Source: Planctomycetota bacterium
GTDB lineage: Bacteria; Planctomycetota; JACOTG01; JAJDCM01
Length of the DNA stretch: 64,000 nucleotides
NCBI GenBank assembly: GCA_029260825.1
Contig: JAJDCM010000059.1
Coordinates: 13,098 to 77,097 of the forward strand
Reading direction: 5' to 3'
How positions within the stretch are numbered: position 1 is the stretch's first letter; the number at the start of each line of letters is the position of its first letter. Positions 7,431-35,792 of this stretch are shown here, in pieces. The position numbers and the translations under genes are program-made. The notes under the pieces were generated by a model, which did no database searches, was not told where the DNA came from, and worked only from the letters and a program-made list of their open reading frames with translations.

Positions 7431-8654
7431 TCATTGGATCTGAAGAACCACTCCGTTCGTAACACTGAACCCGGTCGCATTTGCCGAACCAGAATCTTCC
7501 AGAAGCGCCTGCATGGAAATCGTCATCGGGTTCGCAAGTCCAGGTCCCCGGTTGAGACTCCAAGGGGCGGTGGGAGGCCCTGAGGTCACGACCGTTCCGG
7601 CACAAGCAAATATTGGAATTCCACTTCCTCGAACACACCGAAAAGGCTGAGGGGACAATCCCGAATGAAATGGAGTCGGATTCATGAGGCATCCGATGCT
7701 CTGGCCGGCAGCGCCCAGATTCACCGCTAGTGTGGGCCCCGCGACCCATGCCCAGAAGACGTATCTCGCCGACGCCGGACCAGCGGGCGCAGTATCCAAA
7801 GTCACTTCGATCGGGGAGTTCACCGTTGTGGTGACAGTTCGCGTGGCACCCCCCGATGACCCATCGACAAAAAGGACATCGGCCCTTGTTCCGTTACCAA
7901 CGTTCACATTGCCCGACGCACCTTGCTCGAGGAAACTCACCAGACCACACTGAGAGAGTTGATCGACTTCGGCTGCCGTCAGCTCCCCGTCAAAGAAAGC
8001 AATATCGTCAAGAACGAGTTGGGTTCCCACGTCACCGAAAAAACCGTTGGCCAGAATAAGATCCTGCTGGTAATTGATGAGGTTAACGATGGCAGGCGTA
8101 TGCATCGTTACCATAGAAGACCCATCCTGGTAGATGAGCACTTCACCGCCCTGCCGTCTCACGAGAACGAACATGTGACAAGCACCATCCGCTGGATCTC
8201 CGGCGGAATCACATTGAACAAAATTCCCTGAATCTCGTTGATTGAAACGCAGGGTGCCACTGCCGCCGTTGTGAGCACAATTTAGTCCATTTAAACTTCC
8301 AGCGTTATCCTGGGTACGAAAAAACCGCACGTTGTTGACGTGGTTGGATTGAATCCACACAACAACACTATATGGATCCATCCCAAACTCGAGTGACGTT
8401 TGCGTTCCAGGGAAACTCACTGAATCCGGATCGACCCCCTTGAACTGGATCCCCAAGCCGCCAAAGACTCCTGGAACGTAGCTCGGCGCACATCCGGTGT
8501 TCGGATTGACCACCCCTGGCATGGTGGCCGCGGGCCCAATTCCAACCAGCGAACCCTGGTCAAAGAGCCAAGCCGCCCTGAGAGTTGCCGCATTGCCGGA
8601 TGGACACCAGGCAAAAGAAAGCACAAGAAAACACCATCCAAGTAGCAGACGCAT
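7431..8654 (-). CDS. Secreted LamG-like (concanavalin-type lectin/jellyroll) protein carrying the shared C-terminal domain (CTD)
   Basis: Signal peptide MRLLLGWCFLVLSFAWCPSGNA. LamG-like block (LRAAWLFDQGS ... FFDGELTAAEV). The C-terminal ~160 aa are homologous to the C-termini of four other proteins in this window. Confidence 0.8.
   Translation of the reverse strand: MRLLLGWCFLVLSFAWCPSGNAATLRAAWLFDQGSLVGIGPAATMPGVVNPNTGCAPSYVPGVFGGLGIQFKGVDPDSVSFPGTQTSLEFGMDPYSVVVWIQSNHVNNVRFFRTQDNAGSLNGLNCAHNGGSGTLRFNQRDSGNFVQCDSAGDPADGACHMFVLVRRQGGEVLIYQDGSSMVTMHTPAIVNLINYQQDLILANGFFGDVGTQLVLDDIAFFDGELTAAEVDQLSQCGLVSFLEQGASGNVNVGNGTRADVLFVDGSSGGATRTVTTTVNSPIEVTLDTAPAGPASARYVFWAWVAGPTLAVNLGAAGQSIGCLMNPTPFHSGLSPQPFRCVRGSGIPIFACAGTVVTSGPPTAPWSLNRGPGLANPMTISMQALLEDSGSANATGFSVTNGVVLQIQ
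7434..7913 (-). other. Shared C-terminal domain (CTD) instance 1
   Basis: GNVNVGNGTRADVLFVDGSSGG...RYVFWAWVAGP...IGCLMNPTPF...PQPFRCVRGSGIPIFACAGT...ANATGFSVTNGVVLQIQ. Aligns residue-by-residue with the instances at 18895-19377, 30290-30760, 55183-55653 and 58103-58591. Confidence 0.75.
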
Positions 8655-8970
8655 AGCTCGTCCCTCTTCTTCCGACCACGTTTCCTCACGAAGTATCAGC
8701 CTGGAACAACCAAACTGACCTGGTATGGATGCCAGGCAATCCCGTTATTCCTTGTTGCGTACAAAGTCGAAGCAGCACGAACAACTTCTTCGAATTTCAT
8801 CGAAGTTGTTCACGGAAGGCTTCGAAACAAGCCCGCCAAACTCATCAAGAATAGCCATAAGCATCTGCCTTGCTGCAACATGCGCCCATTGACAGAGACC
8901 TCTCACTCCCCTATCATCCCCGGGGTCTCATGTCTTGTGTCAGAACACCCCCCCGATCAAATCCGGAATC

Positions 8971-9471
8971 ATGACCGACGATCAGCCGACCTTTGACGAA
9001 ATCTATGAGGAATTGCGGAGGATCGCCGTTCGCTTCATGCGAGGGGAGAGATCAAACCATACGCTTCAACCCACTGCTCTCGTCCATGAGGTCTACATCC
9101 GGCTCTGCCCGGACAAAAAGGGTTCATGGGAAAGCCGCGCGCATTTCTTGTCAACTGCCGCCCGCGCTGTCCGGAGAGTGCTCGTTGATCATGCCCGTCT
9201 ACACGGTGCAAGAGAAGGAAGGATGAACAAGATCACTCTGGGTGATCAAGTCGAGGATGCTCCAGACATTCGTCTCAACGCCATCGCACTGGATGAGGCC
9301 GTTCAAAAACTGACGGAGAAATCCAAGCGCAAGAGCCAGATAGTAGAGTTGCGGTTTTTTGCCGGCCTGACCATCGAGGAGACAGCCAAGGTCCTGGGAC
9401 TATCAAGTAGACTGGTGGACAAAGAGTGGCGGTTTGCACGTGCTTGGCTCAGGCGCGAAGTGAGCCGATAG
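8971..9471 (+). CDS. ECF-type RNA polymerase sigma factor of the Ser/Thr-kinase-associated type (ECF43-like)
   Basis: Sigma-2 region (RFMRGERSNHTLQPTALVHEVYIRL) and sigma-4 HTH (QIVELRFFAGLTIEETAKVLGLSSRLVDKEWRFARAWL). It sits 13 bp upstream of an STK gene, which is the classic pairing. Confidence 0.85.
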   Translation: MTDDQPTFDEIYEELRRIAVRFMRGERSNHTLQPTALVHEVYIRLCPDKKGSWESRAHFLSTAARAVRRVLVDHARLHGAREGRMNKITLGDQVEDAPDIRLNAIALDEAVQKLTEKSKRKSQIVELRFFAGLTIEETAKVLGLSSRLVDKEWRFARAWLRREVSR

Positions 9472-9484
9472 CAGGGAAATTCAA

Positions 9485-12220
9485 ATGACCCGAGACGAAG
9501 AAATCCAGGGTCTCTTCGACAAGGCCATCGACGTTGCGCCTGACGAGCGATCGGACTTCCTCGATCAGGAATGTGGTGCAGACCTGGACCTCCGAGACGA
9601 AGTCGAATCTCTACTTTCTCATCACGACCGAGATGTGGAGAGGCCACTCACCCAAAAAGTAGCGGATCAACTTCTGGACGCTATGGGGTTATCCGCATCC
9701 TCGATGGGGAAGATCCCCGATCGCCTGGGACCCTACGAAATCATCGAGAAGATCGGCGAAGGGGCGATGGGAACGGTGTACCTTGCCGAGCAGAAGAGCC
9801 CCGTTCTCCGCCAGGTTGCACTCAAGATCATCAAGCTTGGCATGGACACCAAAGAGGTCATTGCTCGGTTTGAATCCGAACGCCAGGCGCTCGCGATGAT
9901 GAACCACCCCAACATTGCCAAAATCCATGACGCGGGGACCTCTGACGCGGGACGCCCCTATTTCGTCATGGAGTATGTTCCAGGAATTCCCATCAGCAAG
10001 CATTGCGACCAGCAACGTCTCTCTACTCGCGAACGACTCGAGCTGTTTATCCAGGTATGTCATGGAGTGCAGCACTCCCACCAAAAAGGCGTCATCCACC
10101 GCGATCTCAAGCCATCAAACGTCATTGTCGTCATCCAGGACGGAAATTCAGTGGTGAAGATTATCGACTTCGGCGTAGCAAAAGCTATCTATTTTCCTCT
10201 GACCGAAAAAACACTGGTCACCAGCCTGGGACAGCCCATCGGAACGCCCGAGTACATGAGCCCCGAGCAGACCAATAATGTGAGGGACGACATTGACACC
10301 AGGACCGACATCTACTCCCTGGGAGTTCTGCTCTATGAGCTTCTCGTTGGAGAGCCACCTTTCGCTCTCCGGAAAACAGCTCTCGAAGAAGTCTTTCGGA
10401 GAATTCGGGAAGCCGATCCAGCCAAGCCCAGCACACGCATCACAAGCCTCGGAGAGGCAGCCATCGACACTGCAAGCCGCAGAAGTACCGACATCCGAAC
10501 ACTTGCGCGACAACTCCGGGGCGACCTGGACTGGATCTCACTCAAAGCAATGGAGAAGGATCGATCCAAGAGATACGCAGCAGCTACCGATCTTTCCGAC
10601 GACATTCAACGATACCTCGACTGTGAGCCGATCGTGGCGAGACCCCCCAGTGCATCTTACAGGCTCAAGAAGCTACTCCAAAAATACGCAGGCCTTGCAG
10701 CGGCTCTCGCGCTTGTCTTTCTGGTCACTCTCATAGGCGGCGGCGCAACAACAGCATTCTACTTCCAGGCAAAAAACGGGCAAAAGGAGGCAGAGCGGGA
10801 GCGAGAAGCTGTGCTTCGACTCTCAGATATCAGGGTCCTTCAGCAACTTGTCGCTGATTCAGACGAGTTGTGGCCCACCTATCCAGAGAAGATCGATGAG
10901 ATGGAGGCATGGCTCAAGAGAGCCGAGAAGCTCGTCGAAAACCTCCCAACCCATCAGGCTTCTCTTGCTGAACTCACGAAAAGGCTCGAGACAAACGAAA
11001 AGGAACCCGAGTCGACAGTCAGCGTCAGCGAGGGAGAGGATGTGCTCATCGGCAGTTCGCCAAGCACCCGAGGCAACCTGAGAGACACCCAGATAGAAAC
11101 ACAGTGGCAACTGGATATTCTTCGCGACCTGGTTCTGGGGTTGGAGACATTGCTGAACCCCGACCCGAACGTTGGAGTGCTAGCGCACGTGAAAAAACGC
11201 ATTCAGTTCGCAAAGACGCTCCATGTGAATACCATCGAATCTCACCGGAGAGACTGGACAAAAGCGATCAAATCGATCCGCAATGAAAAAGAATGTCCGG
11301 CATATCAAGGTTTGGAACTCAAGCCGCAACTCGGGCTCATTCCCATCGGGCGAGATCAAGAATCACTTCTCTGGGAGTTCTCTCACGCCCAATCAGGCGA
11401 GACTCCGGCGCGAGACGCAAATGGCCGGCTTCTTCTGACGGAGGAAACGGGCCTGGTGATGATCTTGATTCCCGGTGGAAAGTTTTGGATGGGAGCACAG
11501 AGAGAGAAGGAGCATCAACCCAACTACGATCCAGATGCTGAAGGAGATACCTACCCCCTCTACGAAGTACACCTTGACCCGTTCTTCATGTCCAAGTACG
11601 AAATGACTCAAGCGCAATGGAAAAGGTTCACGGGAGACAACCCGAGCGGGGTTGACCCAACAAACTACATTCTTCGATCAATCGGTGATAGCGGGGGACT
11701 TCTCCATCCAGTCGAACAAGTGAGCTGGCAGGACTGCTATCGAGTACTCGGACAGCTGAAACTTCGCCTCCCCACCGAAGCTCAGTGGGAATACTCCGCT
11801 CGAGCGGGAACTGGCTCCATCTGGTGGACAGGGGATGAACGCGAAACGCTACGTGGTTTTACAAACATCTTGGACATTTCCGCCAGAAAACATCACCCCT
11901 CCTTTGCAACCTCCGAACAGTGGGACGATGGATATCCAATGCACGCCTCTGTCGGTAGCTTTCCCCCCAACCCTTTCGGCCTATACGATGTACATGGCAA
12001 CGTCAGTGAGTGGTGCTGGGATCTGCTTTGCAGCTACGGACAGCAGCCCAGACCGGGTGACGGTGCCCGAATACAGAGTCGTTTCACCCTACGCATTTAT
12101 CGAGGTGGTCGCCATAACGGAGATGCACTCCGAGGACGCAGTGCTCTAAGGATGCACTCTCCCCCGGATTCGATCGCGAATGGCCTCGGAGTGCGCCCTG
12201 CTCGACCCATCGATCCTTGA
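9485..12220 (+). CDS. Transmembrane Ser/Thr protein kinase with N-terminal sigma-binding-like region and C-terminal formylglycine-generating-enzyme (FGE-sulfatase/SUMF1-like) domain
   Basis: Kinase motifs GEGAMGTVY, ALKIIK, HRDLKPSNV, DFGVAK, SPEQ. TM helix AGLAAALALVFLVTLIGGGATTAFYF. FGE-like C-terminus: GKFWMGAQ, YEVHLDPFFMSKYEMTQAQW, LPTEAQWEYSARAG, YDVHGNVSEWCWD, RGGRHNGDA. Confidence 0.85.
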   Translation: MTRDEEIQGLFDKAIDVAPDERSDFLDQECGADLDLRDEVESLLSHHDRDVERPLTQKVADQLLDAMGLSASSMGKIPDRLGPYEIIEKIGEGAMGTVYLAEQKSPVLRQVALKIIKLGMDTKEVIARFESERQALAMMNHPNIAKIHDAGTSDAGRPYFVMEYVPGIPISKHCDQQRLSTRERLELFIQVCHGVQHSHQKGVIHRDLKPSNVIVVIQDGNSVVKIIDFGVAKAIYFPLTEKTLVTSLGQPIGTPEYMSPEQTNNVRDDIDTRTDIYSLGVLLYELLVGEPPFALRKTALEEVFRRIREADPAKPSTRITSLGEAAIDTASRRSTDIRTLARQLRGDLDWISLKAMEKDRSKRYAAATDLSDDIQRYLDCEPIVARPPSASYRLKKLLQKYAGLAAALALVFLVTLIGGGATTAFYFQAKNGQKEAEREREAVLRLSDIRVLQQLVADSDELWPTYPEKIDEMEAWLKRAEKLVENLPTHQASLAELTKRLETNEKEPESTVSVSEGEDVLIGSSPSTRGNLRDTQIETQWQLDILRDLVLGLETLLNPDPNVGVLAHVKKRIQFAKTLHVNTIESHRRDWTKAIKSIRNEKECPAYQGLELKPQLGLIPIGRDQESLLWEFSHAQSGETPARDANGRLLLTEETGLVMILIPGGKFWMGAQREKEHQPNYDPDAEGDTYPLYEVHLDPFFMSKYEMTQAQWKRFTGDNPSGVDPTNYILRSIGDSGGLLHPVEQVSWQDCYRVLGQLKLRLPTEAQWEYSARAGTGSIWWTGDERETLRGFTNILDISARKHHPSFATSEQWDDGYPMHASVGSFPPNPFGLYDVHGNVSEWCWDLLCSYGQQPRPGDGARIQSRFTLRIYRGGRHNGDALRGRSALRMHSPPDSIANGLGVRPARPIDP

Positions 12221-12492: not shown

Positions 12493-13971
12493 ATGCAGCG
12501 ACTCTCACTTCCAAGAAAGTGGATCGGCCTCCTGTGCCTTGCGTCCCTTCTTTCGGGCTGTGGCGACAAGGGGCCTCCAAACATCGTGTTGATCACGGTG
12601 GATACTCTCCGCGTGGACCATCTGTCCTATGCCGGATACTCACGGGAGACATCGCCGAACCTTGATGCACTCGCCGAGGAATCGATTCAGTTCACGAATG
12701 CTTTTGCAAACCGAGGACAGACCTGGCCATCACTCACCACCGTCATGACCGGTCTCCACCCGATCGCCCACGGAGTGAGAAAAAATGGCCAGATGCTCTC
12801 GGCTGAGATTCCCGCTCTCGCTCAACTCTTGAAGGAAGGTGGCTACGAAACCGGCTCCTTCCTCACTAACTACTGCAATGCGCCCAATCGCGGGTTCGAT
12901 ACGAAGAAATACTTCTGGAACACCACCATTCCTCAGCACAAGTGGGACTCCCAGATGACTGCCGCTTGCCAGAAGTGGCTGGCCGAGCGATCGGGAGACC
13001 AGCCTTTCTTCTGCTGGCTTCATCTCATGAGCCCTCACGCCGACTTCGACCCTCCTGAGCCCTATCGCACACGCTTTACGAACGGAAAGGCCGGATCCAT
13101 CACTGGGAAAAAGAGCGACATGGATCGAATCATGCTCGGAGAAGTCATTCCATCGGAAGAAGACATCCAGCATCTCATCGATCTCTATGATGGCGAGATC
13201 GCGTTCACCGATTCGCTCATCGGGAATCTACTGGAAGATCTTTCAAAGAAAGGCGTACTCGAGAACTCCGTCGTCGTCTTCCTTGCCGACCATGGCGAGG
13301 AGCTCTTGGACCACAAGAACTACGTTTATCACACCTGTTCTCTTTTCGATTCAGTTCTGCGAGTTCCGCTGCTGATTCGACTTCCCGAAGCAGAACGAAA
13401 GGGCACAAAGATCAACCAGGTGGCTTCTCTTGAAAACATCCTTCCGACTCTCCTTGGGCTCGCCGGACTACCGACTCCAGCTCACATCGACCGCACGAGT
13501 CTCCTCGAGGCCTTTCCCGGAGAAGACGAGGGAGCCGTCATCGCCGAATGGACAGGAAGAAATGAGTGGACTGGATCCGAGGACCCGGCCCTTGAAGTGG
13601 ATGGAGAGCGAGCCCCCCGGATCTTCGCCCTTCGCAACGATGAGTACAAATACATCTACAATCCGGGCGGCTTTTCGCCACGAGGTCATCCTTACCAGTT
13701 ACTCCCCACCGGCGGATTCCCCTATGAACTCGAGGAGCTTTACCACATCTCAAGTGATCCCGGAGAAACGAAGAACATTGCCTCGGATCGCCCGGACATT
13801 GTGGCCCGTCTTCGCCAAGATGTGGTCCGCTGGCTCGCCAGAGATCGGCAACTGAAAGGAAAAAGCGGAGCTCCAGACGCTGCGACCCGGAAAACTCTCG
13901 AATCCCTTGGTTACGTCGTCGAGGAGGAGAAGGCCGGAGAAAACCCGTCAAAGAAAGAAGGGAAACGTTGA
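12493..13971 (+). CDS. Lipoprotein of the alkaline-phosphatase superfamily with sulfatase-like fold but a Thr-type (NPP/phosphodiesterase-like) nucleophile motif
   Basis: Lipobox LLSGC. N-terminal NIVLITVDTLRVDH metal-binding block. Where sulfatases have C-x-P-x-R, this protein has GQTWPSLTTVMTGLHPIAHG, which resembles the nucleotide pyrophosphatase/phosphodiesterase TFPNHYSIVTG Thr-nucleophile block. The C-terminal DEYKYIYNP...LYHISSDPGETKN is sulfatase-like. Confidence 0.75.
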   Translation: MQRLSLPRKWIGLLCLASLLSGCGDKGPPNIVLITVDTLRVDHLSYAGYSRETSPNLDALAEESIQFTNAFANRGQTWPSLTTVMTGLHPIAHGVRKNGQMLSAEIPALAQLLKEGGYETGSFLTNYCNAPNRGFDTKKYFWNTTIPQHKWDSQMTAACQKWLAERSGDQPFFCWLHLMSPHADFDPPEPYRTRFTNGKAGSITGKKSDMDRIMLGEVIPSEEDIQHLIDLYDGEIAFTDSLIGNLLEDLSKKGVLENSVVVFLADHGEELLDHKNYVYHTCSLFDSVLRVPLLIRLPEAERKGTKINQVASLENILPTLLGLAGLPTPAHIDRTSLLEAFPGEDEGAVIAEWTGRNEWTGSEDPALEVDGERAPRIFALRNDEYKYIYNPGGFSPRGHPYQLLPTGGFPYELEELYHISSDPGETKNIASDRPDIVARLRQDVVRWLARDRQLKGKSGAPDAATRKTLESLGYVVEEEKAGENPSKKEGKR

Positions 13972-14054
13972 TCGCGGAAACACCGAAGAATGCTCATCGA
14001 CCTTCAAGCCAACCTTCAAACCCCGTCGGTCATTCGTCGCTTCTCCGTGCTCTG

Positions 14055-15440
14055 ATGCTTTCTTTCTTGTCGCTGGCCGTTTGGGGATGTCCTTCTGATC
14101 CACCAAGAACCAATTCGCATCCCAACGTCGTCATCTTTCTCGCCGATGACCTCGGGATGGGAGACGTTGGCTACCTGGGAAGTGAGATCCCCACCCCTCA
14201 CATCGATCGTCTTGCAAATAACGGTCTCGTGTTCCACAGATTCTATACGGAACCCTACTGCACGCCTTCCCGAGCCGCTCTCTTGACCGGAAGGAATCCG
14301 ATTCGATACGGTCTGAGCTCTTCCGTGCTTCGTCCCTGGAGCGAATCCGGACTTCCCTCGTCGGAAACACTTCTCTCCGAGACCTTCCAGGCGGCCAACT
14401 ACTACACGGCCTTGGTCGGGAAATGGCACCTTGGTCACCGGAAAAAAGAGATGCACCCCAACTCGAGAGGCTTCGATCATTTCTACGGGCACCTGGGAGG
14501 TCGCATCGACTACTTCACCCATCAGGTTTCCTACCGGAAACTCGATGGTCAAAAGCTCGGACTTGACTGGCAAAGAAACGGCAAAGGAATCACAGAAAAA
14601 GGCTACTCCACCGATCTTCTGGCTCAGGAAGCGGTAAAAGTCGTGAACACGAGCGATCCAGGTCGTCCTCTGTTTCTCCTTCTATCTTTCAACGCTCCTC
14701 ACCCACCCCTTCAGGCAACTCCTCAAAAACTCGAGGAGTTCAAGAACATCGGAAGTCCCCAGCGCCAGACCTATGCCGCCATGGTGGCATCCCTTGACGA
14801 CGCAGTAGGTGATGTAACTCGGGCCTTGCAGGAAGAAGGCATGCTCGACAACACATTGATTGTCTTCATGAGCGACAACGGAGCAGCTCCGGCAAAGGGC
14901 GGGAGAAACGGACAGTATCGAGGAGGCAAAGCGTCGACGTGGGAGGGCGGGATCAGGGTCCCGGCATTTCTTCATTGGCCCCAGAAGATTCCCGGGGGAC
15001 AGCACACCCAGCAACTCATATCGAGCCTTGATCTATTGCCGACCATCGCTTCTGCGGTCGGCGTCCCTGTAACCTCCCATCTCCCTCTGGACGGAAAAGA
15101 TCTGTGGGAACTCATTCATCTGGGAGCCACCGAGCCGCGCCAGGATCTCCATTTTGCGGCACTGAACGGAGAGCTTCTTTTTCTTACCACGCTTCGCGAA
15201 ACCTGGAAGCTTGTCCGAGAGGTTGATGGGCGCGATGGAACATCCAGGGAGCGCCTGTTCGATTTGACCGACCCGACCGAACGGAACGATGTCCTCGCGG
15301 AGCAAGCTAAGATCGCCTCGGAACTCAGTCTTTCCCTCGACAAGTGGTTGGCTCTGGGGAAGGGAGAGATCCAGGCAGAGGAAGAAGATCCCCCGGTGCA
15401 GTGGCGACCTCCGACGGATTGGGCCAAGGCGGCCGAGTGA
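14055..15440 (+). CDS. Arylsulfatase-family (formylglycine-dependent) sulfatase, lipoprotein
   Basis: Canonical signature PYCTPSRAALLTGR (C-x-P-x-R). N-terminal VVIFLADDLGMGDVG. GKWHLG. Lipobox LAVWGC at the internal Met at 14055. The ORF-track TTG start at 13968 overlaps the upstream stop. Confidence 0.8.
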   Translation: MLSFLSLAVWGCPSDPPRTNSHPNVVIFLADDLGMGDVGYLGSEIPTPHIDRLANNGLVFHRFYTEPYCTPSRAALLTGRNPIRYGLSSSVLRPWSESGLPSSETLLSETFQAANYYTALVGKWHLGHRKKEMHPNSRGFDHFYGHLGGRIDYFTHQVSYRKLDGQKLGLDWQRNGKGITEKGYSTDLLAQEAVKVVNTSDPGRPLFLLLSFNAPHPPLQATPQKLEEFKNIGSPQRQTYAAMVASLDDAVGDVTRALQEEGMLDNTLIVFMSDNGAAPAKGGRNGQYRGGKASTWEGGIRVPAFLHWPQKIPGGQHTQQLISSLDLLPTIASAVGVPVTSHLPLDGKDLWELIHLGATEPRQDLHFAALNGELLFLTTLRETWKLVREVDGRDGTSRERLFDLTDPTERNDVLAEQAKIASELSLSLDKWLALGKGEIQAEEEDPPVQWRPPTDWAKAAE

Positions 15441-17733: not shown

Positions 17734-19380
17734 ATGAAGATCTCGCGATTTCTTCTTCTACTCATCTTCGCCTTGTGCGCACCGGGTTACGGAGTCGCCC
17801 AATGCGATTTTGAGGAATTGCAGAAGGTTTTCGACCCAAACGCCTCTCAATTCGACTGGTTTGGTCATTCAGTATCCTTCGATGGCGATGTCGCAATCGT
17901 CGGGTCATTTCAAGACGATGATACGGGCCTGAATAATGGGTCGGTATTCATCTATCGCTCGAATGGATCTACCTGGACCGAAGAACAGAAGATCAACGGA
18001 CAAGCGTCGAGCAGAGGATTCGGTGCATCGGTAACAATTGAGGATGATGTGGCAGTCGTAGTTGCTATCGCTTCGGGCAAAGTACTAGTCTTTCGCTTCA
18101 ACGGAACCTCGTGGGAAGAAGAAACAGTTTTGCCTGTCCAAATACCGCGCTCCGTCTCTCTCGACAATGGTGTTCTGATCGTTGGTTCAGACGACAGCGT
18201 TGGTGGCGAAGCTAGTATTTTTACCTATGATGAGGATCAATGGATTCTTGAGGACACGATCACGGCGAGTGATGCCTCGTTTGATGATCAATTTGGTAGA
18301 GCAGTATCCATAGACGGCCAGCATCGTGTCGCCATTATTGGCGCACCAAAGAATGACGATGCCTGTCCGCAGAGTCTAAACTGTGACTCAGGGTCGAGCT
18401 ATATTTTTCGCTACGATGGTTCGTCATGGGTTCAGGAGCAAAAGATAACTGCAAGCGATGCTGACAGAGTGGACGAATTTGGTTCTACGGTGAGTATCGT
18501 CGCGGATCAAGCTGTTGTTGGCGGCAGCGGACCAGCCATACCAGGCAAAAAAGCATATGCCTTTCGATTTACTAGTGGGAATTGGATCGAAGAACAGCGG
18601 TTAACCGCCCCTAACGCAGCTCTGGGAAATAGTGTTGTCTTGGGAGAACGAGGCCTCGTGGCTGTCGGTGGCGTTTCTGGTCAGTCAAATTTGGGAGAGG
18701 TATACACGTTCAAGTTCGACGGAAACACATGGAACTCGGACCAGGTGCTAACCGCAAGCGACGCTAAGATGTTCGACGATTTCGGGTTTGCAGTCGACAT
18801 AAGCGGAAGCGAGCTTCTTGTCGGTGCGCGCCTTGCTAGTGAACCTACGCACTCAGGAGCAGCGTACTTTCTCCGTCAGAATTTCGATTGCTCTAAAGGA
18901 AACGTAAATACAGGAGTGGGGCCAGCAACAGATGTTCTCTTCATAAACGGTTCTCCGGGAAACATCAACGCTACTGTCAACGTCTCTCTTGGTGAAGCGG
19001 TGACTTTTGCACTAGACGCAGCACCCGAGGGCCCGGTTTCAGGGAACTACCTCCTGTATGTTTGGAGCGGCTTTCCCGTCAAATGTGGAGATCTCATGGC
19101 TATGGGAGAGATGATTGGCTGCATGGTCAATCCTACTCCGTTTATGAGACCTCAAAACCCACAACCATTCCGTTGTCTTCGAAGTAGCGGCATTCCGAGC
19201 GTTGTATGTAGCGGAATCGTTGAGAAGGCGGGACCCGCAACAGTTCCTTGGGATCTCACCCTAAATCAAGGGTTTCAGCAGTCCGCCGTGTTCACACTCC
19301 AAGCAATCATCCAGGACCAAGGTGCGGGTAATGCAACGGGCTATTCTGTGACGAACGCTGCAACTGTTGTGGCTGAGTAA
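17734..19380 (+). CDS. Secreted FG-GAP-repeat beta-propeller protein with shared CTD
   Basis: Signal peptide MKISRFLLLLIFALCAPGYGVAQ. About 7 repeats of FG.SV...GD.A.VGS..DD.....GS.YIF....G.W (e.g. DWFGHSVSFDGDVAIVGSFQDDDTGLNNGSVFIYR). C-terminal ~160 aa = CTD. Confidence 0.8.
   Translation: MKISRFLLLLIFALCAPGYGVAQCDFEELQKVFDPNASQFDWFGHSVSFDGDVAIVGSFQDDDTGLNNGSVFIYRSNGSTWTEEQKINGQASSRGFGASVTIEDDVAVVVAIASGKVLVFRFNGTSWEEETVLPVQIPRSVSLDNGVLIVGSDDSVGGEASIFTYDEDQWILEDTITASDASFDDQFGRAVSIDGQHRVAIIGAPKNDDACPQSLNCDSGSSYIFRYDGSSWVQEQKITASDADRVDEFGSTVSIVADQAVVGGSGPAIPGKKAYAFRFTSGNWIEEQRLTAPNAALGNSVVLGERGLVAVGGVSGQSNLGEVYTFKFDGNTWNSDQVLTASDAKMFDDFGFAVDISGSELLVGARLASEPTHSGAAYFLRQNFDCSKGNVNTGVGPATDVLFINGSPGNINATVNVSLGEAVTFALDAAPEGPVSGNYLLYVWSGFPVKCGDLMAMGEMIGCMVNPTPFMRPQNPQPFRCLRSSGIPSVVCSGIVEKAGPATVPWDLTLNQGFQQSAVFTLQAIIQDQGAGNATGYSVTNAATVVAE
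18895..19377 (+). other. Shared C-terminal domain (CTD) instance 2
   Basis: GNVNTGVGPATDVLFINGSPGN...NYLLYVWSGFP...IGCMVNPTPFMRPQNPQPFRCLRSSGIPSVVCSG...GNATGYSVTNAATVVAE. Confidence 0.75.
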
Positions 19381-22103: not shown

Positions 22104-22952
22104 ATGACCTCGCTTTCAGCCTCTGACTCCAATCTTCACCGGAACTCGTTTCGATCAGCCCTCGTCCTGGCGGCATTGAGCAGCCTCTCCCACGGCTGCT
22201 CCTCCGCAAGCCTCCCGACCCAACCTGAAGAAGCCTCGCTTCAACCGGCCGTCATTCGTGCGTTCGCCAAACCAAATCCCGAGGCCGATGCTACCGATCA
22301 AACCTCGGTTGAGACCGACGAGACTCTCTCCATCGAGCTGGCCTTCATCACCCACCTGGAGATGAACCTCCCGGAACAGGACGTCTACATCGAACGAGAG
22401 CCAGGATCCGGAGAAGTCTTCCGACCCACCCAGGGAGATAACGACATGTCGGCGCTCCTTTACAAGACCGCCGTCACCGTTCCCCACAATCCATTCGACC
22501 CGGCGCAGATCGGCCCGCACCCCAAAGGCGAGTCATTTGGCATGACCCTCGGGGAATGGCTCGCCCACCGGGGCACCGGGGTGTACGCCGCCAAAGATGG
22601 AGCGGGAACCCTCGACCTCGAGTTCACCGGCCTCGTCCCCCGCGGGATCTACACCCTCTGGCACGTGTTCGGTGCCTTTCCACCGACCAAGCCATTCTCG
22701 GGCACTCTGAAGCTGCCGCTCGGAGCTCGAGATGGCTCGGAGAGTGTGTTCACAGCGGATGAACAAGGCCGAGCTCGCTTCCGCCACACCTTCACCCCGG
22801 AGCTCGAGCTGTCCGATGTCTGGACCCGCTCCATGCTCGCGCTGAACTACCACAGCGACGGCAAGACATATGGAGGACTCCCGGGCGATTTCGGCCTGAA
22901 CGCCCACATCCCCCTGTTCGTCATGCTCCCGTTCCGGGACGGCTTGCGATGA
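22104..22952 (+). CDS. Hypothetical lipoprotein (possible periplasmic partner of the downstream di-heme enzyme)
   Basis: Lipobox LSSLSHGCSS. 282 aa. Sits immediately upstream of a MauG/CCP-family gene. Confidence 0.6.
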   Translation: MTSLSASDSNLHRNSFRSALVLAALSSLSHGCSSASLPTQPEEASLQPAVIRAFAKPNPEADATDQTSVETDETLSIELAFITHLEMNLPEQDVYIEREPGSGEVFRPTQGDNDMSALLYKTAVTVPHNPFDPAQIGPHPKGESFGMTLGEWLAHRGTGVYAAKDGAGTLDLEFTGLVPRGIYTLWHVFGAFPPTKPFSGTLKLPLGARDGSESVFTADEQGRARFRHTFTPELELSDVWTRSMLALNYHSDGKTYGGLPGDFGLNAHIPLFVMLPFRDGLR

Positions 22953-23029
22953 ACAGCACTGCAGACGACCGACGACCCTTTCTCCGACCCCCTTTCAAAA
23001 CTCCACTCCAGAAAGAAAGGATTCATGCC

Positions 23030-24289
23030 ATGAAAGTCTTCCTCTCCCTTTTGTGCGCCGCGCTCTGCGCAAACAGCGCCGAAGCTCGAAACCCCGAAAG
23101 CGAGTTCCACGGCCAACGCACCCTGCCAGATTCCGTCACAAATAGAGACTATTATGATGATGGCGCTCCCTCCCCGGCCAAGGTGGAGTTAGGACGATTA
23201 CTGTTCTTCGATCCGATCCTGAGCGGCAACCGGAACATCTCATGCGCCACGTGCCACCATCCGAGCTTCGGCACTTCGGACGAAGTCTCGCTGTCCCTGG
23301 GGGAGGGGGCTAAAGGACTCGGTCCGGATCGTATTTCGTCTCGGTCCCACATCGGAGGTGTTTACGAACGCATCCCCCGGAACTCACCCGCCCTGTTCAA
23401 TCTCGGCGCAAGGGAATACACCGTCCTCTTTCACGACGGTCGTGTCGAGGTGGACAAGAACGCGGGCTACGAGAGTGGCTTCATCTCTCCCGCACGCTGG
23501 AAGCTCCCTCGAGGACTGAGCAACGCTCTGGCTGCCCAGGCCATGTTTCCCGTGACCTCACCGGCTGAGATGGCGGGACAGCAAGGAGAAAACCCGATCG
23601 CCGACGCCCGCGCGCGCAATCAGGTGGGCGGCGAAGGAGGTGTCTGGGATCTCCTGACCCTTCGACTCCGCTCCATCCCGGAGTACAAGGAGAGATTCTC
23701 GGCGGCGTTTCCGTCGGAAGTGAGAATCACCGACGACATCGACATGGTCCTGGCGGCGAACGCGATCGCCGCATTCGAAGCTCACTCATTTCGAGCGGAC
23801 CAGAGTCCCTTCGATCGCTACCTTCGGGGAGATGAAAACGCATTGAGCTCAAAAGAGGTCCGGGGGATGAACCTCTTTTACGGCAAGGCGAGCTGCAGCG
23901 CTTGCCATTCGGGCAAGTTTCAAACCGATCATGGATTTCACGCCATCGCCATGCCCCAGGTCGGTCCGGGAAAGTCGGACGGCTGGGATTCAGGCTACTG
24001 GAGCAAGAGTGGATACCAGGCGTTTCCAGAGGATCAGGGGCGGGGCCGAGTGACCGGCCGGATCGAAGATAACTACCGCTTCCGAACACCATCGCTCCGA
24101 AACGTAGCCCTGACCGCTCCCTACGGCCATAGCGGAGCCTATCCCTCCCTGGAAGAAGTCGTGCGCCACCATCTCCAACCCGTCGCGACGCTCCATGCAT
24201 ACGATGGGTCGGCCGCCTCCCTCCCGCCCCTGAACTTTGTCCTCGAGCACTCGGCCCGCGGTTCCTCGTTTCTTTCCTCCACTCCTTGA
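23030..24289 (+). CDS. Di-heme cytochrome c peroxidase / MauG-family enzyme
   Basis: Signal peptide MKVFLSLLCAALCANSAEA. Two heme-binding motifs CATCHH and CSACHS. Family block FRTPSLRNVALTAPYGHSGAYPSLEEVVRHH. Confidence 0.8.
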   Translation: MKVFLSLLCAALCANSAEARNPESEFHGQRTLPDSVTNRDYYDDGAPSPAKVELGRLLFFDPILSGNRNISCATCHHPSFGTSDEVSLSLGEGAKGLGPDRISSRSHIGGVYERIPRNSPALFNLGAREYTVLFHDGRVEVDKNAGYESGFISPARWKLPRGLSNALAAQAMFPVTSPAEMAGQQGENPIADARARNQVGGEGGVWDLLTLRLRSIPEYKERFSAAFPSEVRITDDIDMVLAANAIAAFEAHSFRADQSPFDRYLRGDENALSSKEVRGMNLFYGKASCSACHSGKFQTDHGFHAIAMPQVGPGKSDGWDSGYWSKSGYQAFPEDQGRGRVTGRIEDNYRFRTPSLRNVALTAPYGHSGAYPSLEEVVRHHLQPVATLHAYDGSAASLPPLNFVLEHSARGSSFLSSTP

Positions 24290-24560: not shown

Positions 24561-27500
24561 GTGATTCGATCGATTCTTGCCCTAGCCTTCGCCATGTTCG
24601 CGAGCGCTCTATTGTTCTCGACGCCCCTCCTCGCCACCGAGCCCAAGAGCTCTCCCGATCTCGATGAAGAAAAGGTGCTCTATGTTGTGGGCTATGCTCA
24701 CCTCGATACCCAATGGCGCTGGGACTTCGCAACGACGATCGAGCATTACATCCCGGCGACACTTCGGAAAAACTTCGAGCTCTTTGACAAGTACGACAGC
24801 TATATCTTCAACTTCACAGGATCCGCCCGCTTTGAAATGATGGAGGAGTATTACCCCCAAGATTTCGAAAAACTGAAGGGCTATGTGGAGGAAAATCGGT
24901 TTCGCGTGGTCGGCTCGTCCGTGGATGAAGGCGATGTCAACGTTCCATCCGCCGAGGCACTCCTGCGACAGGTTCTCTATGGCAACGGATATTTCCGGCG
25001 AACCTTCAACCGAGAAGGCATCGACTACATGCTTCCGGACTGCTTCGGGTTTCCGGCCTCCGTTCCTTCCATTCTCGCCCATTGTGGCCTCAAAGGATTC
25101 GTCACCCAGAAACTGACATGGGGATCCGCGGTCGGCATTCCCTTCAACGTCGGCGTATGGGAAGGGCCCGACGGTAACTCGGTCGTAGCCGTCTTGAATC
25201 CGGGAGCCTACGTACACCGACTCAGAAACGACCTGAGCGAAGACCCCTCCTGGCTCGAGAGGGTCGAACAACTCGGAGAAGATGCCTCGGTCTTCACTGA
25301 TTATCATTTCTATGGCGTTGGTGATCGAGGAGGAGCTCCGGACGAGGAGTCGGTCAAGTGGCTCGAAAAATCCGTGTCGGGAAAAGGTCCACTCAAGGTG
25401 ATCTCCGCCTCGTCAGATCAGATCTTCCGCGACCTGACGGAAGAGCAAATCTCTCGACTTCCCCGCTACAAAGGAGACATGCTTCTCACCGAACATTCGG
25501 CGGGAACCCTCACCTCCCAGGCCTATATGAAGAGATGGAACCGGAAGAACGAGCTCCTCGCTGATGCCGCCGAACGCGCCTCCGTGATGGCAGAGTGGCT
25601 CGGGGGCGCAACCTATCCAAAAGAGAAAATGGAAAAGATGTGGGTGCGGGTCCTCCTCAGCCAGATGCATGACATCTTGCCCGGCACCAGCATCCCAAAA
25701 GCCTACGAATATTCCTGGAACGACGAAGTTCTTGCCCTCAATGGTTTCTCCCGGATTCTCACCAATGCCATGGGAGCTGTGGCGCAAAGCCTCGACACCC
25801 GAGTCGAAGGAACTCCCATCCTGGTCTTCAATCCCCTGTCTATTCCCCGGGAAGACATCGTTCAGGCCAGGGTCACCGTTTCACCCGGCAAGAACGGAAT
25901 TGATGTGAGGGATCCGAGCGGAATCCAGGTCCCTGCCCAGATGAAAAGAGTGAACGACACGACCTTTGATGTGACCTTCCTCGCCAAGGTCCCAGCTCTT
26001 GGCGCCTCGGTCTTTGATGTGCGAGAACTCGACGCCCCAGCAACCATCAAGAGCGAGCTATCGGTAACGACAAATACGCTGGAAAATACTCATTACCGGG
26101 TCACACTGAACTCTCAGGGAGACGTGGCCCAGATCTACGACAAGAAACTCGGCAAAGACCTCCTCTCTTCTCCCGCCAGGCTCCTGTTGCTTCGCGACGC
26201 TCCGGCTCAATGGCCCGCATGGAACATGGACTGGAAAGACCTTCAGGCCGAACCCGCCGCCATCGTCTCCGGGCCCGCCAAGATCACCATTGTCGAAGAT
26301 GGACCGGCACGAGTTTCCCTCTCGGTCACAAGAGATGTTCTGGGATCAAGAATCGTGCAGCGCATACGACTTTCTGCAGGAAAAGCTGGCGACCGCCTTG
26401 AATTCGACAACGAAATCGAATGGAGCACCAAGGGTTACTGCCTCAAAGCCGAGTTTCCCCTCACGGCCTCCAACTCTCTTGCCACCTACAACCCAGGAAT
26501 GGGAACGATCCAGCGCTCGACCAATCATGAGAAGAAATACGAAGTCCCTTCTCACGAATGGTTCGATCTTACCCACGACGACGGGACCTTCGGCGTCACG
26601 GTGATTGAAGATTGCAAGTTCGGGTCAGACAAGCCCGATGACAGCACCCTTCGTCTCACACTGCTACGAACTCCCGAAGCGAAGAGCTACCTGGACCAGG
26701 CGACCCAGGACCTGGGAATGCACGAAATGACCTACGGGATAGCCGGTCATCGAGGTGACTGGCGCGAGGGGAACGCGCCCTGGCTCGGTTCCCGCCTCAA
26801 TCAACCCCTCCTAGCTTTCCAGCCCCCAAAACACGATGGCCCGTCCGGACGATCTTTGTCCTTCCTAGCGCTCAACACCAATCGAATCGCGGTAAGGGCA
26901 GTCAAGAAGGCCGAGGTCGCCGACGAGATCATCGTACGAGTTCAGGAACTTGCCGGCTACCCGGTAAAAGGTGCCACCCTCGGGCTCCTGGCAAGCATAA
27001 CAAGCGCAAGGGAGACCGACGGCCAGGAGAGAAGCATCGGAAGCGCAAAGCTGAACCATGGCTCCTTGGTTTTCGATATGGAACCCTACGGACTGAAAAC
27101 CTTTGCTCTCACCCTCACCCCTCACGCCTCCACTGCTGTGCTACCGGCCTCAGAGCCGGCTACCCTTCCGTTTAATTGCGATGTTCTTGGACTGGACGGA
27201 GAGAAGAATGGGGGCAGCATGGACCAGGACAAGAGATGTTACCCCGGCGAAATGCTACCGGCTAAGCTCCAGTGCGAGGGAATCACGTTCAAACTCGGAT
27301 CTTCCGGATCCGGCATCGACAACGCCGTTTCTTGTCAGGGGCAGAAGATCCAGCTGCCAGAGGGCGACCACGATTTGATCTATCTTCTGGCTGCTTCTTC
27401 CGACATCGAGAAGGAAGCAATCTTTCGCGTCGGAGAAACCAAGACCGCTCTTACCGTCCAGAACTGGACCGGGTACATCGGCCAGTGGGACAACCGGCAA

Positions 27501-28496
27501 TGGAACAAAAACGAGATGATCGGTCTTGCGCCGGGCTTCATCAAGCGCGACCCCGTGGCCTGGTTCTCGACCCATCGTCACTCGGACCAAGGCGACAACG
27601 ATCCTTACCAGTTCAGCTATCTCTTCCTGTACTCCATTGCGAAAGAAACAGGAGAAAAAGAACTCGTCCTACCCAGCAACCCGGACATCAAGATCCTTGC
27701 CATGAGCGTTGCAACCAACCCGAACGAGGCGACCCGCCCAGCCCAGCACCTCTATGACACTCTCGAAATGGTTCGCTCGGTCTCCCCTCCCTACATCGCA
27801 AAAGACGAAGGTAGCTACGGAAGCGGTCTCTTCCTGCAAGAAGTCAAGATCGAGCTGGCCTCGGTAACCGAAGGTTCAACGATTTTCTACACCCTGGACG
27901 GCACCGACCCTGATCAAAGTAAGACAAAATATCAGTCACCCATCCAGTTCGCTGAGGAAACGGAGATCAGGGCGCGGGCCTTCAAAGAGGGGCAACCCAG
28001 CAGCGTCGTCTTCAGCCAACGATTCACCCGAACAACTCCTCTTCCCGCAGGAGAGTTTGGCGAAGTCGTACCGGGGATTGATTTCGAATACTACGAGGAA
28101 GTCGACTTAAGAAAACTCCCTGACTTCGACGAACTCGTACCGAAAAAGACCGGAGCGCAAAAGACCATCGGGATCCAGGCAAGAAGAAGAGATGACGACA
28201 TCTCGTTTCGATTCCGCGGCTTCATTCGGATCGAAGATACCGCGGTCTACACCTTCTTCCTCAGCTCGGACGATGGAAGCAAACTCAAGATCAATGGAGA
28301 GACCATCATTGACCACGACGGACTTCACGGAGCCTCGGACAAAAAGGGCTATATCGCGCTCGAACAAGGGCTCCACGCTCTCGAAGTGACCTTTTTCGAA
28401 CGAGGGGGCGACGAGGCACTCACTCTTGAGATTCAGGGCCCCGGCCTAGCGCGCAACCCGATTCCAGAATCAATGCTCTTTCGATCTCGACAATGA
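24561..28496 (+). CDS. GH38-family alpha-mannosidase with C-terminal Fn3/chitobiase-like and PA14 domains
   Basis: GTG start with gagg RBS. Signal peptide. GH38 N-terminal catalytic blocks VVGYAHLDTQWRW and DCFGFPASVPSILAHCGLKGFVTQKLTW. PA14-like C-terminus GFIRIEDTAVYTFFLSSDDGSKLKINGETII...LEVTFFERGGDEALTLEIQG. Confidence 0.85.
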   Translation: MIRSILALAFAMFASALLFSTPLLATEPKSSPDLDEEKVLYVVGYAHLDTQWRWDFATTIEHYIPATLRKNFELFDKYDSYIFNFTGSARFEMMEEYYPQDFEKLKGYVEENRFRVVGSSVDEGDVNVPSAEALLRQVLYGNGYFRRTFNREGIDYMLPDCFGFPASVPSILAHCGLKGFVTQKLTWGSAVGIPFNVGVWEGPDGNSVVAVLNPGAYVHRLRNDLSEDPSWLERVEQLGEDASVFTDYHFYGVGDRGGAPDEESVKWLEKSVSGKGPLKVISASSDQIFRDLTEEQISRLPRYKGDMLLTEHSAGTLTSQAYMKRWNRKNELLADAAERASVMAEWLGGATYPKEKMEKMWVRVLLSQMHDILPGTSIPKAYEYSWNDEVLALNGFSRILTNAMGAVAQSLDTRVEGTPILVFNPLSIPREDIVQARVTVSPGKNGIDVRDPSGIQVPAQMKRVNDTTFDVTFLAKVPALGASVFDVRELDAPATIKSELSVTTNTLENTHYRVTLNSQGDVAQIYDKKLGKDLLSSPARLLLLRDAPAQWPAWNMDWKDLQAEPAAIVSGPAKITIVEDGPARVSLSVTRDVLGSRIVQRIRLSAGKAGDRLEFDNEIEWSTKGYCLKAEFPLTASNSLATYNPGMGTIQRSTNHEKKYEVPSHEWFDLTHDDGTFGVTVIEDCKFGSDKPDDSTLRLTLLRTPEAKSYLDQATQDLGMHEMTYGIAGHRGDWREGNAPWLGSRLNQPLLAFQPPKHDGPSGRSLSFLALNTNRIAVRAVKKAEVADEIIVRVQELAGYPVKGATLGLLASITSARETDGQERSIGSAKLNHGSLVFDMEPYGLKTFALTLTPHASTAVLPASEPATLPFNCDVLGLDGEKNGGSMDQDKRCYPGEMLPAKLQCEGITFKLGSSGSGIDNAVSCQGQKIQLPEGDHDLIYLLAASSDIEKEAIFRVGETKTALTVQNWTGYIGQWDNRQWNKNEMIGLAPGFIKRDPVAWFSTHRHSDQGDNDPYQFSYLFLYSIAKETGEKELVLPSNPDIKILAMSVATNPNEATRPAQHLYDTLEMVRSVSPPYIAKDEGSYGSGLFLQEVKIELASVTEGSTIFYTLDGTDPDQSKTKYQSPIQFAEETEIRARAFKEGQPSSVVFSQRFTRTTPLPAGEFGEVVPGIDFEYYEEVDLRKLPDFDELVPKKTGAQKTIGIQARRRDDDISFRFRGFIRIEDTAVYTFFLSSDDGSKLKINGETIIDHDGLHGASDKKGYIALEQGLHALEVTFFERGGDEALTLEIQGPGLARNPIPESMLFRSRQ

Positions 28497-33695: not shown

Positions 33696-35792
33696 ATGAC
33701 ACGATTCGTTTCTTCTCCAAGACGCCGCGGGACCCGGATTCGCAGGATCGGTCTCGGCATCCTTACGTTCGTTTTCACCTGGCTTCTTTTCGTTCCGGTT
33801 CAAGCCGATGCGCCGCTGACCACCGGAAACGCCGTCGCTGTTCTCTCCCCCTCAAAGAAACAGTCCTCGGTCACGGCGAACATCCTTCTCGAACTCAAGC
33901 GATCTCACTATCGCTCGGGCCTTCGGTTCAACGATGCGCTCTCCTCAAAACTCCTGGACAGCTATCTCGAAGGACTTGATCCCAGTCGTAGCTTCTTTCT
34001 TCAGTCCGATGTCGACCGGTTCGATTCGTTTCGTCACGAGCTTGACGATGCAATCAAGGAAGGAGACCTCGACCCGGCGTTCGAGATCTTCAACCTGTTT
34101 CAGGAACGACGGATCGAGAGGAATCAACACATCTCCTCGCGGCTTGAAGATGGCATCGGCAAGATCGATTTCACGGTCGATGAAAAGCTCGAGCTCGATC
34201 GAGACAAGAAGCCATGGCTGAGCTCTCAGTCCGAGCTGGAAGACCTCTGGCGCAAACAGTTCAAATACGACGTACTGAGCCTGAAGCTCGGCGAGAAAAC
34301 GGATGAGGAAATCACCAAGGTTCTTTCTCGTCGCTATGAAAACCAGCTGCGACGAATGCGCCAGACGAACACCAAGGATGTGTTCCTCACGTTCATGAAT
34401 ACTCTCACCATGAGCTACGACCCTCACACCCAGTACTTCCCGCCTCACGAATCAAAAAACTTTGACATCCGAATGAGCCTCTCGGTAGAGGGCATCGGAG
34501 CCCTTCTTCAGAGCGACCAGGACTACACCAAGATCGTTCGCATCATTCCCGGCGGCCCTGCGGAAGCAAGTGATCTCCTGAAAGCCGCCGATCGCATCCT
34601 GGCGGTCGGGCAGGACACAGAAGGTGAGATGGTTGATATTGTGGGCTGGAGAATCGACGAAGTTGTGGACCTGATTCGAGGCCCCAAGGGAAGCCAGGTT
34701 CGTCTTGAAATCCTCCCGGCCGGCATCTCTAGCCGAACCGAATCCAAGCTGATTCAACTCACCCGAGACAAGGTAAAACTCGAAGAACAGGAAGCACAAA
34801 AAAAGATCCTGACCCGCAAGAAGAACGGAAAAGACTACAAGGTCGGCGTGATCGAGCTTCCCGCGTTCTACATGGATTTCAAGGCCGCGCAGGCAGGCGA
34901 CCCCAATTACAAGAGCGGCACCCGAGACGTCCGAAAACTCATCGGCGAGCTCAAGAAAGAGAACGTTGACGCCCTCGTCCTCGATCTTCGGAACAATGGC
35001 GGTGGATCCCTTGTCGAGGCTCGAGAACTCACCGGCGCATTTCTCCGAACCGGGCCAGTGGTTCAAATTCGAGACTCGAACGGCTATCTCCAGATTCTTG
35101 CCGACGAGGACAAAAGCATCGCCTGGTCCGGACCTTTCGCCGTCCTCGTCAATCGGCTGAGTGCTTCTGCATCGGAGATCTTCGCCGGGGCCATTCAAGA
35201 CTATGGCCGGGGCATCGTGCTCGGAGGGCGCACCTTTGGAAAGGGAACCGTCCAGAATGTGAGACCACTCCGGGAAGGCGACATCAAGCTCACTCTCGCC
35301 AAATTCTATCGGGTCTCCGGAGGAAGCACCCAGAACCGAGGCATCACGCCTGACATTCCATTCCCGGACATCTACGACGAAGATGAAATCGGAGAAAGCT
35401 CTCTACCCGAAGCTCTTAAATGGGACAGCGTCGCATCCCTCGAAGTCAAGAAGGACAACTTCATCCCTTCCATCCTTCCAGCCCTTCGCCAGCTTCATGA
35501 TCGAAGAACCAAGAGCGATCCCGAATTCCAGTACATTCTCGATCGGGCGGAATTCAGCCGCAAGATGAGAGAAGACAACTCCATCTCCCTCAACACGGAA
35601 GGCCTGAAGGCCGAGCGAGCAAAGACCGAGGAAGATGCACTGAGAATCGAAAACAAGAAGAGAATTGGTCTCGGTCTTGAGCCGGTGAAGAAACTCGCCG
35701 ATCTTGAAGACCCGGACGCCGAAAAGAGAGATGATCCAGTGGTTGTCGAAAGTGCCGACATTCTTGTCGACCTGATGACGCTGGCAAAATAG
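33696..35792 (+). CDS. prc: Tail-specific (carboxy-terminal processing) protease, S41 family
   Basis: S41 blocks GVIELPAFY, ALVLDLRNNGGGSL, ASASEIFAGAIQDYGRGIVLGGRTFGKGTVQ. N-terminal TM/signal. Length ~700 aa is typical of Prc. Confidence 0.85.
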   Translation: MTRFVSSPRRRGTRIRRIGLGILTFVFTWLLFVPVQADAPLTTGNAVAVLSPSKKQSSVTANILLELKRSHYRSGLRFNDALSSKLLDSYLEGLDPSRSFFLQSDVDRFDSFRHELDDAIKEGDLDPAFEIFNLFQERRIERNQHISSRLEDGIGKIDFTVDEKLELDRDKKPWLSSQSELEDLWRKQFKYDVLSLKLGEKTDEEITKVLSRRYENQLRRMRQTNTKDVFLTFMNTLTMSYDPHTQYFPPHESKNFDIRMSLSVEGIGALLQSDQDYTKIVRIIPGGPAEASDLLKAADRILAVGQDTEGEMVDIVGWRIDEVVDLIRGPKGSQVRLEILPAGISSRTESKLIQLTRDKVKLEEQEAQKKILTRKKNGKDYKVGVIELPAFYMDFKAAQAGDPNYKSGTRDVRKLIGELKKENVDALVLDLRNNGGGSLVEARELTGAFLRTGPVVQIRDSNGYLQILADEDKSIAWSGPFAVLVNRLSASASEIFAGAIQDYGRGIVLGGRTFGKGTVQNVRPLREGDIKLTLAKFYRVSGGSTQNRGITPDIPFPDIYDEDEIGESSLPEALKWDSVASLEVKKDNFIPSILPALRQLHDRRTKSDPEFQYILDRAEFSRKMREDNSISLNTEGLKAERAKTEEDALRIENKKRIGLGLEPVKKLADLEDPDAEKRDDPVVVESADILVDLMTLAK

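Follow-up and report, generated by a model that had tools for sequence, protein, structure and literature searches.

We analyzed a window of 64,000 nucleotides from the genome of a Planctomycetota bacterium (assembly GCA_029260825.1, contig JAJDCM010000059.1, positions 13,098 to 77,097) and found that exactly five of its open reading frames (ORFs) share a homologous C-terminal domain of about 165 amino acids, referred to below as the CTD. Gene 1 (7431-8654, minus strand, 407 aa; database protein P0010) encodes a signal peptide, a LamG-like domain (Laminin_G_3, residues 90-230, E 5e-10), and CTD copy 1 (7434-7937, minus strand). Gene 2 (17734-19380, plus strand, 548 aa) encodes a signal peptide, an FG-GAP propeller (FG-GAP_2, E 1e-51), and CTD copy 2 (18868-19377, plus strand). 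The product of gene 3 (30287-32476, minus strand, 729 aa) consists of a signal peptide, an Endonuclease I domain (Endonuclease_1, E 6e-34), an LTD-like region (a weak LTD match), and CTD copy 3 (30293-30814, minus strand), the most divergent of the five. Gene 4 (53248-55656, plus strand, 802 aa; P0012) specifies an N-terminal hydrophobic segment, a region of DLNGDGD repeats, and CTD copy 4 (55156-55650, plus strand), and gene 5 (58100-60409, minus strand, 769 aa; P0011) specifies a signal peptide, BTRD1 repeats (E 1e-34), an M23 peptidase domain (Peptidase_M23, E 6e-20), and CTD copy 5 (58103-58600, minus strand).

A preliminary description of this DNA had proposed that five proteins end in a common module, and this was borne out by the ORF translations, by alignment, and by two profile hidden Markov models (HMMs). 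The five C-termini were aligned over about 165 residues, with 29-44% identity to copy 1 and 21 invariant columns. An HMM of the five CTDs, searched against the six-frame translation of the window, found only those five (E 1e-60 to 2e-78; copies 1, 2, 4, and 5 at 1e-75, 2e-78, 3e-69, and 1e-70, and copy 3, as a model member, at 9e-60), and the best score after them was E 0.7. To avoid circularity, a second HMM was built from 154 family members, all from outside this genome; it found the window CTDs at E 2e-68 (copy 2), 3e-67 (copy 1), 1e-56 (copy 5), 8e-48 (copy 4), and 3e-23 (copy 3), with no other match at E<=10. The span first delimited, 7434-7913, corresponds to the last 160 codons of the minus-strand ORF 7431-8654, where the HMM envelope runs from 7434 to 7937.

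The portions upstream of the CTD, which we call passengers, had been described as unrelated to one another, and Pfam indeed assigned different families to four of the five N-terminal parts and none to that of gene 4. CTD similarity was found to be decoupled from passenger similarity, in that some window copies are nearer to CTDs on other passengers than to one another. The nearest relative of copy 5, which is carried by the M23 protein, is the CTD of P0017 (56% identity); P0017 is a YVTN-propeller protein and derives from the sequencing run of the window. A trivial origin of the similarity, by recent whole-gene duplication, low complexity, or assembly artefact, can therefore be excluded, given how low the identity between paralogs is, that their N-terminal parts are unrelated, that the out-of-genome HMM recovers all five, and that the family occurs in contigs of several genomes. 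The G+C content of the host contigs ranges from 56% to 71%, which indicates that several lineages carry the family. The earlier statement that recent duplication of whole genes is not the cause thus agrees with both the identity values and the presence of closer relatives on different passengers.

In a Pfam census of 89 members, at least 36 passenger families were counted, the commonest being PD40 (13), FG-GAP_2 (9), FG-GAP (8), and the Rax2-type propeller (8), with VWA, HYR, M23, Chlam_PMP, and Ig-like domains among the others. Propellers and adhesin-like domains predominate among the passengers. No family of carbohydrate-active enzymes (CAZymes) was present among the 25 passenger families listed of these 36, and M23, found in one of the 89 proteins, was the sole peptidase family in the listed census. 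Stand-alone proteins consisting of a signal peptide and a CTD also exist (for example, P0008). There is one clear ortholog pair, the window FG-GAP protein and P0013, in which the CTD is 72% identical and the passenger 59%.

The size of the family was evaluated by a full HMMER scan of 1.84 billion protein cluster representatives (clusters defined at 50% identity), which gave 1,697 representatives at E<=1e-3, 1,138 at E<=1e-10, and 288 at E<=1e-30; three of the top matches were the window's own proteins. Word-indexed protein searches with CTD profiles, a far less sensitive method, gave 9 and 14 matches. All members that bear an organism name come from metagenome-assembled genomes (MAGs) labeled 'Planctomycetes bacterium' or 'Planctomycetota bacterium', and among genome contigs a search with a CTD consensus sequence gave at least one related locus (L002), also from a Planctomycetota MAG. 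One family locus also holds a DUF1501 and PSD1 gene pair, which is typical of Planctomycetes, and the window itself encodes an extracytoplasmic function (ECF) sigma factor of the PF07638 type, Ser/Thr kinases, and sulfatases, in keeping with Planctomycetota.

The copy number per genome is also high. Beyond the window end, at a distance of 216 nucleotides, there is a sixth CTD gene (P0004, called as 223 aa), at the window-equivalent positions 64216-64887 (minus strand), as seen on the overlapping Logan contig L001 (2713-3384). Six CTD copies are present on L003, a 22.7 kb segment of MAG GCA_016200105.1, and the near-identical pair of MAGs to which this MAG belongs supplied four more members, bringing the number in one groundwater MAG to at least 10. 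The large family predicted in the preliminary description was therefore found, both in the number of clusters and in the number of copies per genome. As called, P0004 shows no clear signal peptide and is directly preceded by a called gene of 103 aa; the start of P0004 may have been miscalled or the gene may be disrupted. Several family copies are split by frameshifts (L003 436-2429 and 18625-20730; L008 594-1811 and 4133-5242), and these are either pseudogenes or assembly errors.

The position of the CTD within its proteins was determined in 159 members. The domain never occurs twice in one protein, and its end lies 0-2 residues from the C-terminus in 157. Within these 157, the register is nearly fixed: 140 have the invariant Asn of the motif FSVTNAVxLxV[EQRP] at the same distance, 8 residues, from the C-terminus, and the chain ends in E, Q, R, or P in 129 and in Phe in 4. 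Among the 136 members that begin with Met, a crude hydrophobicity rule identified a signal-peptide-like N-terminus in 114. In the window, each of the five proteins shows, on inspection by eye, a hydrophobic segment at its N-terminus, in agreement with the signal peptides claimed for them at the outset. The accompanying claim that the domain is always at the extreme C-terminus holds for all five window copies and for all but two of the 159 family members. One is P0001 (218 aa), in which the CTD is followed by a 15-residue Cys/Gly tail (ANPCSDCCGGGGYFR), and the other is P0145 (611 aa), in which a signal peptide is followed by a CTD-like domain (residues 25-187) and then by a beta-helix domain.

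We looked for a known identity of the CTD in several ways. With the five full-length proteins, no Pfam-A or NCBIfam model was placed on the C-terminal region at E<=0.1, and with the five CTDs alone there was no match to either collection at E<=10. A set of 40 diverse CTDs searched against Pfam and NCBIfam at E<=1 gave only weak matches, each of them in one member and thus interpreted as noise. When the sequences of all PDB chains were searched with a profile, the best score was E 0.08, and searches of full-text literature gave no description of this domain. TIG/IPT was considered as an identity and rejected, as the recorded TIG/IPT matches of some relatives sit immediately upstream of the CTD and outside it. 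The CTD is therefore apparently undescribed, as judged against Pfam-A (2025), NCBIfam 20.0, the PDB, and the full-text papers searched. This is consistent with the earlier remark that the domain resembled no named sorting signal; the possibility raised at the same time, that it is a known carbohydrate-binding module (CBM), lectin, or other named module, was checked by HMM and by structure, and none matched.

AlphaFold2 models of two different window paralogs, copy 1 (pLDDT 87.1, pTM 0.85) and copy 2 (pLDDT 93.9, pTM 0.89), showed the same all-beta pattern of about 13 strands. A Foldseek search gave no match at E<=1e-3, and the query-normalized TM-scores did not exceed 0.36. At the level of fold only, the models have the two-sheet Greek-key sandwich of the Ig/MG/FN3 class: about 55-60% of the CTD aligns with such domains (the MG domains of complement C5 and CD109 and the Ig domains of PECAM) at 6-16% identity, a likeness that is uninformative on function. 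As modeled, the CTD is an Ig-like beta-sandwich core elaborated by a proline-rich insert of about 40 residues. This insert holds the best-conserved loop motifs, NPTP[LF]x5PQPxxC, with a second Cys about 10 residues farther on. Four residues (Gly83, Gln144, Asp149, and Asn162 in the numbering of copy 1) are invariant in the 40 diverse members. On inspection by eye, NGS and NAT were considered as N-glycosylation sequons and GNVNxGxG as a dockerin-like Ca loop, and both ideas were set aside.

The family consensus contains four cysteines that form two covarying pairs, C1/C2 and C3/C4. Both cysteines of C3/C4 are present in 147 members, a single one in 1, and none in 11, and the corresponding numbers for C1/C2 are 101, 32, and 26. 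This pairwise covariation argues for two disulfides, C1-C2 and C3-C4, and hence for folding of the CTD outside the cytoplasm, as predicted from the sequences. The preliminary description had credited the domain with 2-4 conserved cysteines. Conserved cysteines are indeed present, but their distribution is less uniform: the C3/C4 pair is present in every window copy but that of the nuclease (copy 3), which has a different, Cys-richer pattern. C1 and C2 occur together only in the FG-GAP copy (copy 2), which thereby has all four consensus cysteines; copy 3 contains a comparable pair. Copies 4 and 5 keep C3/C4 and lack C1/C2. A subfamily without C3/C4, which includes P0003, P0005, P0006, P0008, P0009, and four of the L003 copies, has PQPxxIWNNxG...LGA in place of PQPxxC...C. 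As a separate observation, genes for a Thioredoxin/DsbH-like protein (L009 12998-14113) and a Redoxin (L007 14083-14709) lie within a few kb of CTD genes on two unrelated contigs; in these two cases only, a link to disulfide formation may exist.

The compact, autonomous, and confidently predicted fold, with its putative disulfide staples, would suit a structural accessory that has no specific partner, such as a folding or stability domain, a pro-domain like the pre-peptidase C-terminal (PPC) domains, or an oligomerization unit, and the CTD is present on hydrolases (M23 and the nuclease) of kinds that often have C-terminal pro-domains. We nevertheless consider this explanation quite improbable. 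Most passengers are neither proteases nor hydrolases, and no Pfam match to PPC (PF04151, a pro-domain of secreted peptidases) or a related family was found. In the ortholog pair described above, the CTD has diverged less than the passenger, a sign of stronger constraint, and the conserved proline-rich loops suggest a specific interface. Furthermore, proteins that consist of a signal peptide and a CTD, such as P0008, leave such an accessory nothing to chaperone.

The preliminary description had drawn a parallel between the CTD and the CTDs of the type IX secretion system (T9SS) of Bacteroidota, namely type A (Por_Secre_tail, PF18962/TIGR04183) and type B (TIGR04131). In layout, this parallel stands. 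Both kinds of domain have an Ig-like-core beta-sandwich at the extreme C-terminus of signal-peptide proteins; both are fused to many unrelated enzymes, propellers, and adhesins and exist in many copies per genome; and in both, the last strands are the best conserved. It does not extend to sequence, size, or strand number. The T9SS family HMMs (PF18962/TIGR04183 and PF13585/TIGR04131) gave no match to the five full-length proteins at E<=0.1, to the five CTDs alone at E<=10, or to the 40 diverse CTDs at E<=1. T9SS CTDs are compact sandwiches of about 70-100 residues and 7 strands, whereas the domain described here, with about 165 residues and about 13 strands, is about twice that size and has, unlike them, the proline-rich insert with its predicted disulfide staple. 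Moreover, every organism-named member of this family is from a Planctomycetota MAG, and we know of no T9SS in Planctomycetota.

We tentatively interpret the CTD as a lineage-specific C-terminal handle for sorting or surface attachment, analogous and not homologous to the T9SS CTD, and would put the chance that this is right at a little under even. It is suggested by the combination of a precursor predicted to be exported, a single C-terminal copy in a fixed register, many unrelated passengers, many paralogs, restriction to a lineage, and a CTD that is more constrained than its passenger. In the model that we envisage, the precursor would be exported by means of its N-terminal signal peptide, and the CTD would then fold in the periplasm, where it would be stapled by the C1-C2 and C3-C4 disulfides. 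A shared partner would subsequently recognize the folded CTD and either pass the passenger across the outer membrane or tether it to the cell surface. It is possible, although rather doubtful, that the CTD serves specifically as the cargo signal for an as yet undescribed pathway of outer-membrane secretion or surface display, one that is peculiar to an uncultured lineage of Planctomycetota and is made of parts unrelated to the T9SS.

Other C-terminal systems were compared in the same way. The short tags PEP-CTERM/exosortase, GlyGly-CTERM/rhombosortase, LPXTG/sortase, and MYXO-CTERM follow the same logic, in that unrelated exported proteins share C-terminal homology, and they too are lineage-restricted. 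However, such tags are about 20-35 residues long and combine a motif with a transmembrane helix and a basic tail, whereas the CTD is a globular domain of 165 residues. In both models, the CTD terminates in a beta-strand, its last residue is polar, and a hydrophobic helix is absent; no NCBIfam sorting signal matched it. An autotransporter or outer-membrane protein barrel would have at least 12 strands and a C-terminal aromatic beta-signal; the CTD models are soluble sandwiches, and Phe is rarely the last residue, as described above.

Dockerins and CBMs resemble the CTD in being modular, non-catalytic appendages of different secreted proteins. The dockerin is made of about 70 aa of helical Ca-binding repeats, whereas the CTD is essentially all-beta and has no PF00404 match. 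The comparison with CBMs and lectins bears on an alternative to a sorting or attachment handle, namely that the CTD is a module for ligand binding or adhesion, directed to a polysaccharide, a surface polymer, or the surface of prey or particles, which would confer one binding specificity on many extracellular proteins and have no role in their sorting or secretion. An Ig/macroglobulin-like sandwich is found in many adhesion and carbohydrate-binding modules, and the GNVNxGxG, NPTP, and PQP loops could form a binding site together with the invariant Gln, Asp, and Asn. We regard this alternative as a serious but unlikely one. Binding modules usually vary in place and number, whereas the CTD is strictly single, C-terminal in all but two of the members examined, and fixed in register; CBMs accompany CAZymes, whereas the CTD is mostly found on propellers and adhesin-like proteins and not on glycoside hydrolases; and there was no similarity to a CBM or lectin family HMM, even at E<=10.

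A number of results weigh against a sorting or attachment handle that is served by its own machinery, as had been proposed in the preliminary description. The part of that proposal concerning a terminal domain shared by unrelated exported proteins was supported; no candidate for the machinery was found. The window yielded no candidate receptor, translocon, or sortase-like gene, and the T9SS core families (PorK/L/M/N, SprA/Sov, PorV, and PorU) had no match in the 30 other window ORFs scanned. When the neighbors of family members were clustered, over about 190 kb from 6 genomes, no non-passenger family recurred; the only recurring clusters were passenger families and their antisense shadows. This null result is weak evidence, since in known sorting systems the genes for cargo and for machinery are usually not linked either. 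The domain order of P0145 indicates that the fold does not strictly depend on a free C-terminus. Terminal position is by itself a weak argument, because C-terminal domains generally end near the stop codon, and the M23, PD40/TolB-like, and Endonuclease I passengers could work in the periplasm, so that translocation across the outer membrane is not required. Both the N-terminal CTD of P0145 and the lack of linked machinery would fit a binding module, which would, moreover, produce much the same picture as a sorting tag.

To our knowledge, protein transport across the outer membrane and display on the unusual envelope of Planctomycetota are poorly understood, and we know of no cargo signal comparable to the T9SS CTD that has been described for this phylum; none was found in searches of full-text literature. 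The family reported here is real, large, and apparently unnamed, and the way it is laid out points strongly to a role in C-terminal sorting or anchoring, a function that we infer. If the CTD is a sorting tag, the hundreds of otherwise unrelated proteins that bear it would represent a coherent surface or secreted proteome of these uncultured bacteria. If there is a dedicated pathway, the approximately 1,700 clusters would define its secretome and provide a handle for finding the translocon by phylogenetic profiling. Even if the CTD is only a binding module, the domain family would still be new, with clear motifs and a fold that is predicted well. In any case, its size, about 1,700 clusters at 50% identity, is considerable for a family that is at present unannotated in Pfam and NCBIfam.

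The passenger of gene 4, the DLNGDGD-repeat region (53248-55150, plus strand), had no Pfam match at E<=0.1. Its homologs P0040, P0062, P0087, P0100, and P0101 (30-32% identity) all end in a CTD, and the repeat region may itself be an undescribed family of Ca-binding repeats or propellers. A twin-arginine translocation (Tat) signal was considered for this protein and rejected: its RRGRDFL sequence does not fit the Tat consensus RRxFL, and there is no alternative start codon upstream of the hydrophobic segment.

The CTD is present on only a subset of the likely secretome of the window. Genes for exported proteins that lack it include two tandem sulfatases (12493-15440, plus strand), a 1,311-aa GH38 alpha-mannosidase with CHB_HEX_C and PA14 domains (24561-28496, plus strand), and a Big_1/MG-like protein (56078-57817, plus strand).

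Genes for an ECF sigma factor of the PF07638 type and for Ser/Thr kinases adjoin CTD genes at three places in the window's sample, and in another genome a sigma factor and kinase pair lies about 5 kb from a CTD gene. The sigma factor and kinase genes near CTD genes are located at 8935-9471 and 9485-12220 of the window (both plus strand), at L001 3495-6613, at L006 3128-5941, and at L005 15869-18182; two of these kinases (911 and 937 aa) carry an FGE-sulfatase domain. The proximity may reflect a regulatory link, or it may be due to chance in kinase-rich genomes.

The whole window (1-64000) contained no tRNA genes and no Rfam matches at the gathering threshold. It encodes a tail-specific protease, Prc, with S41 and PDZ domains (33696-35792, plus strand), for which the best non-self relative is 54% identical and the named relatives are gammaproteobacterial Prc proteins of about 50% identity; this gene represents either a conserved family or a horizontal acquisition. 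Two paralogous genes for di-haem cytochrome c peroxidases (CCP_MauG) are also present, at 22949-24289 and 50481-52127, both on the plus strand.

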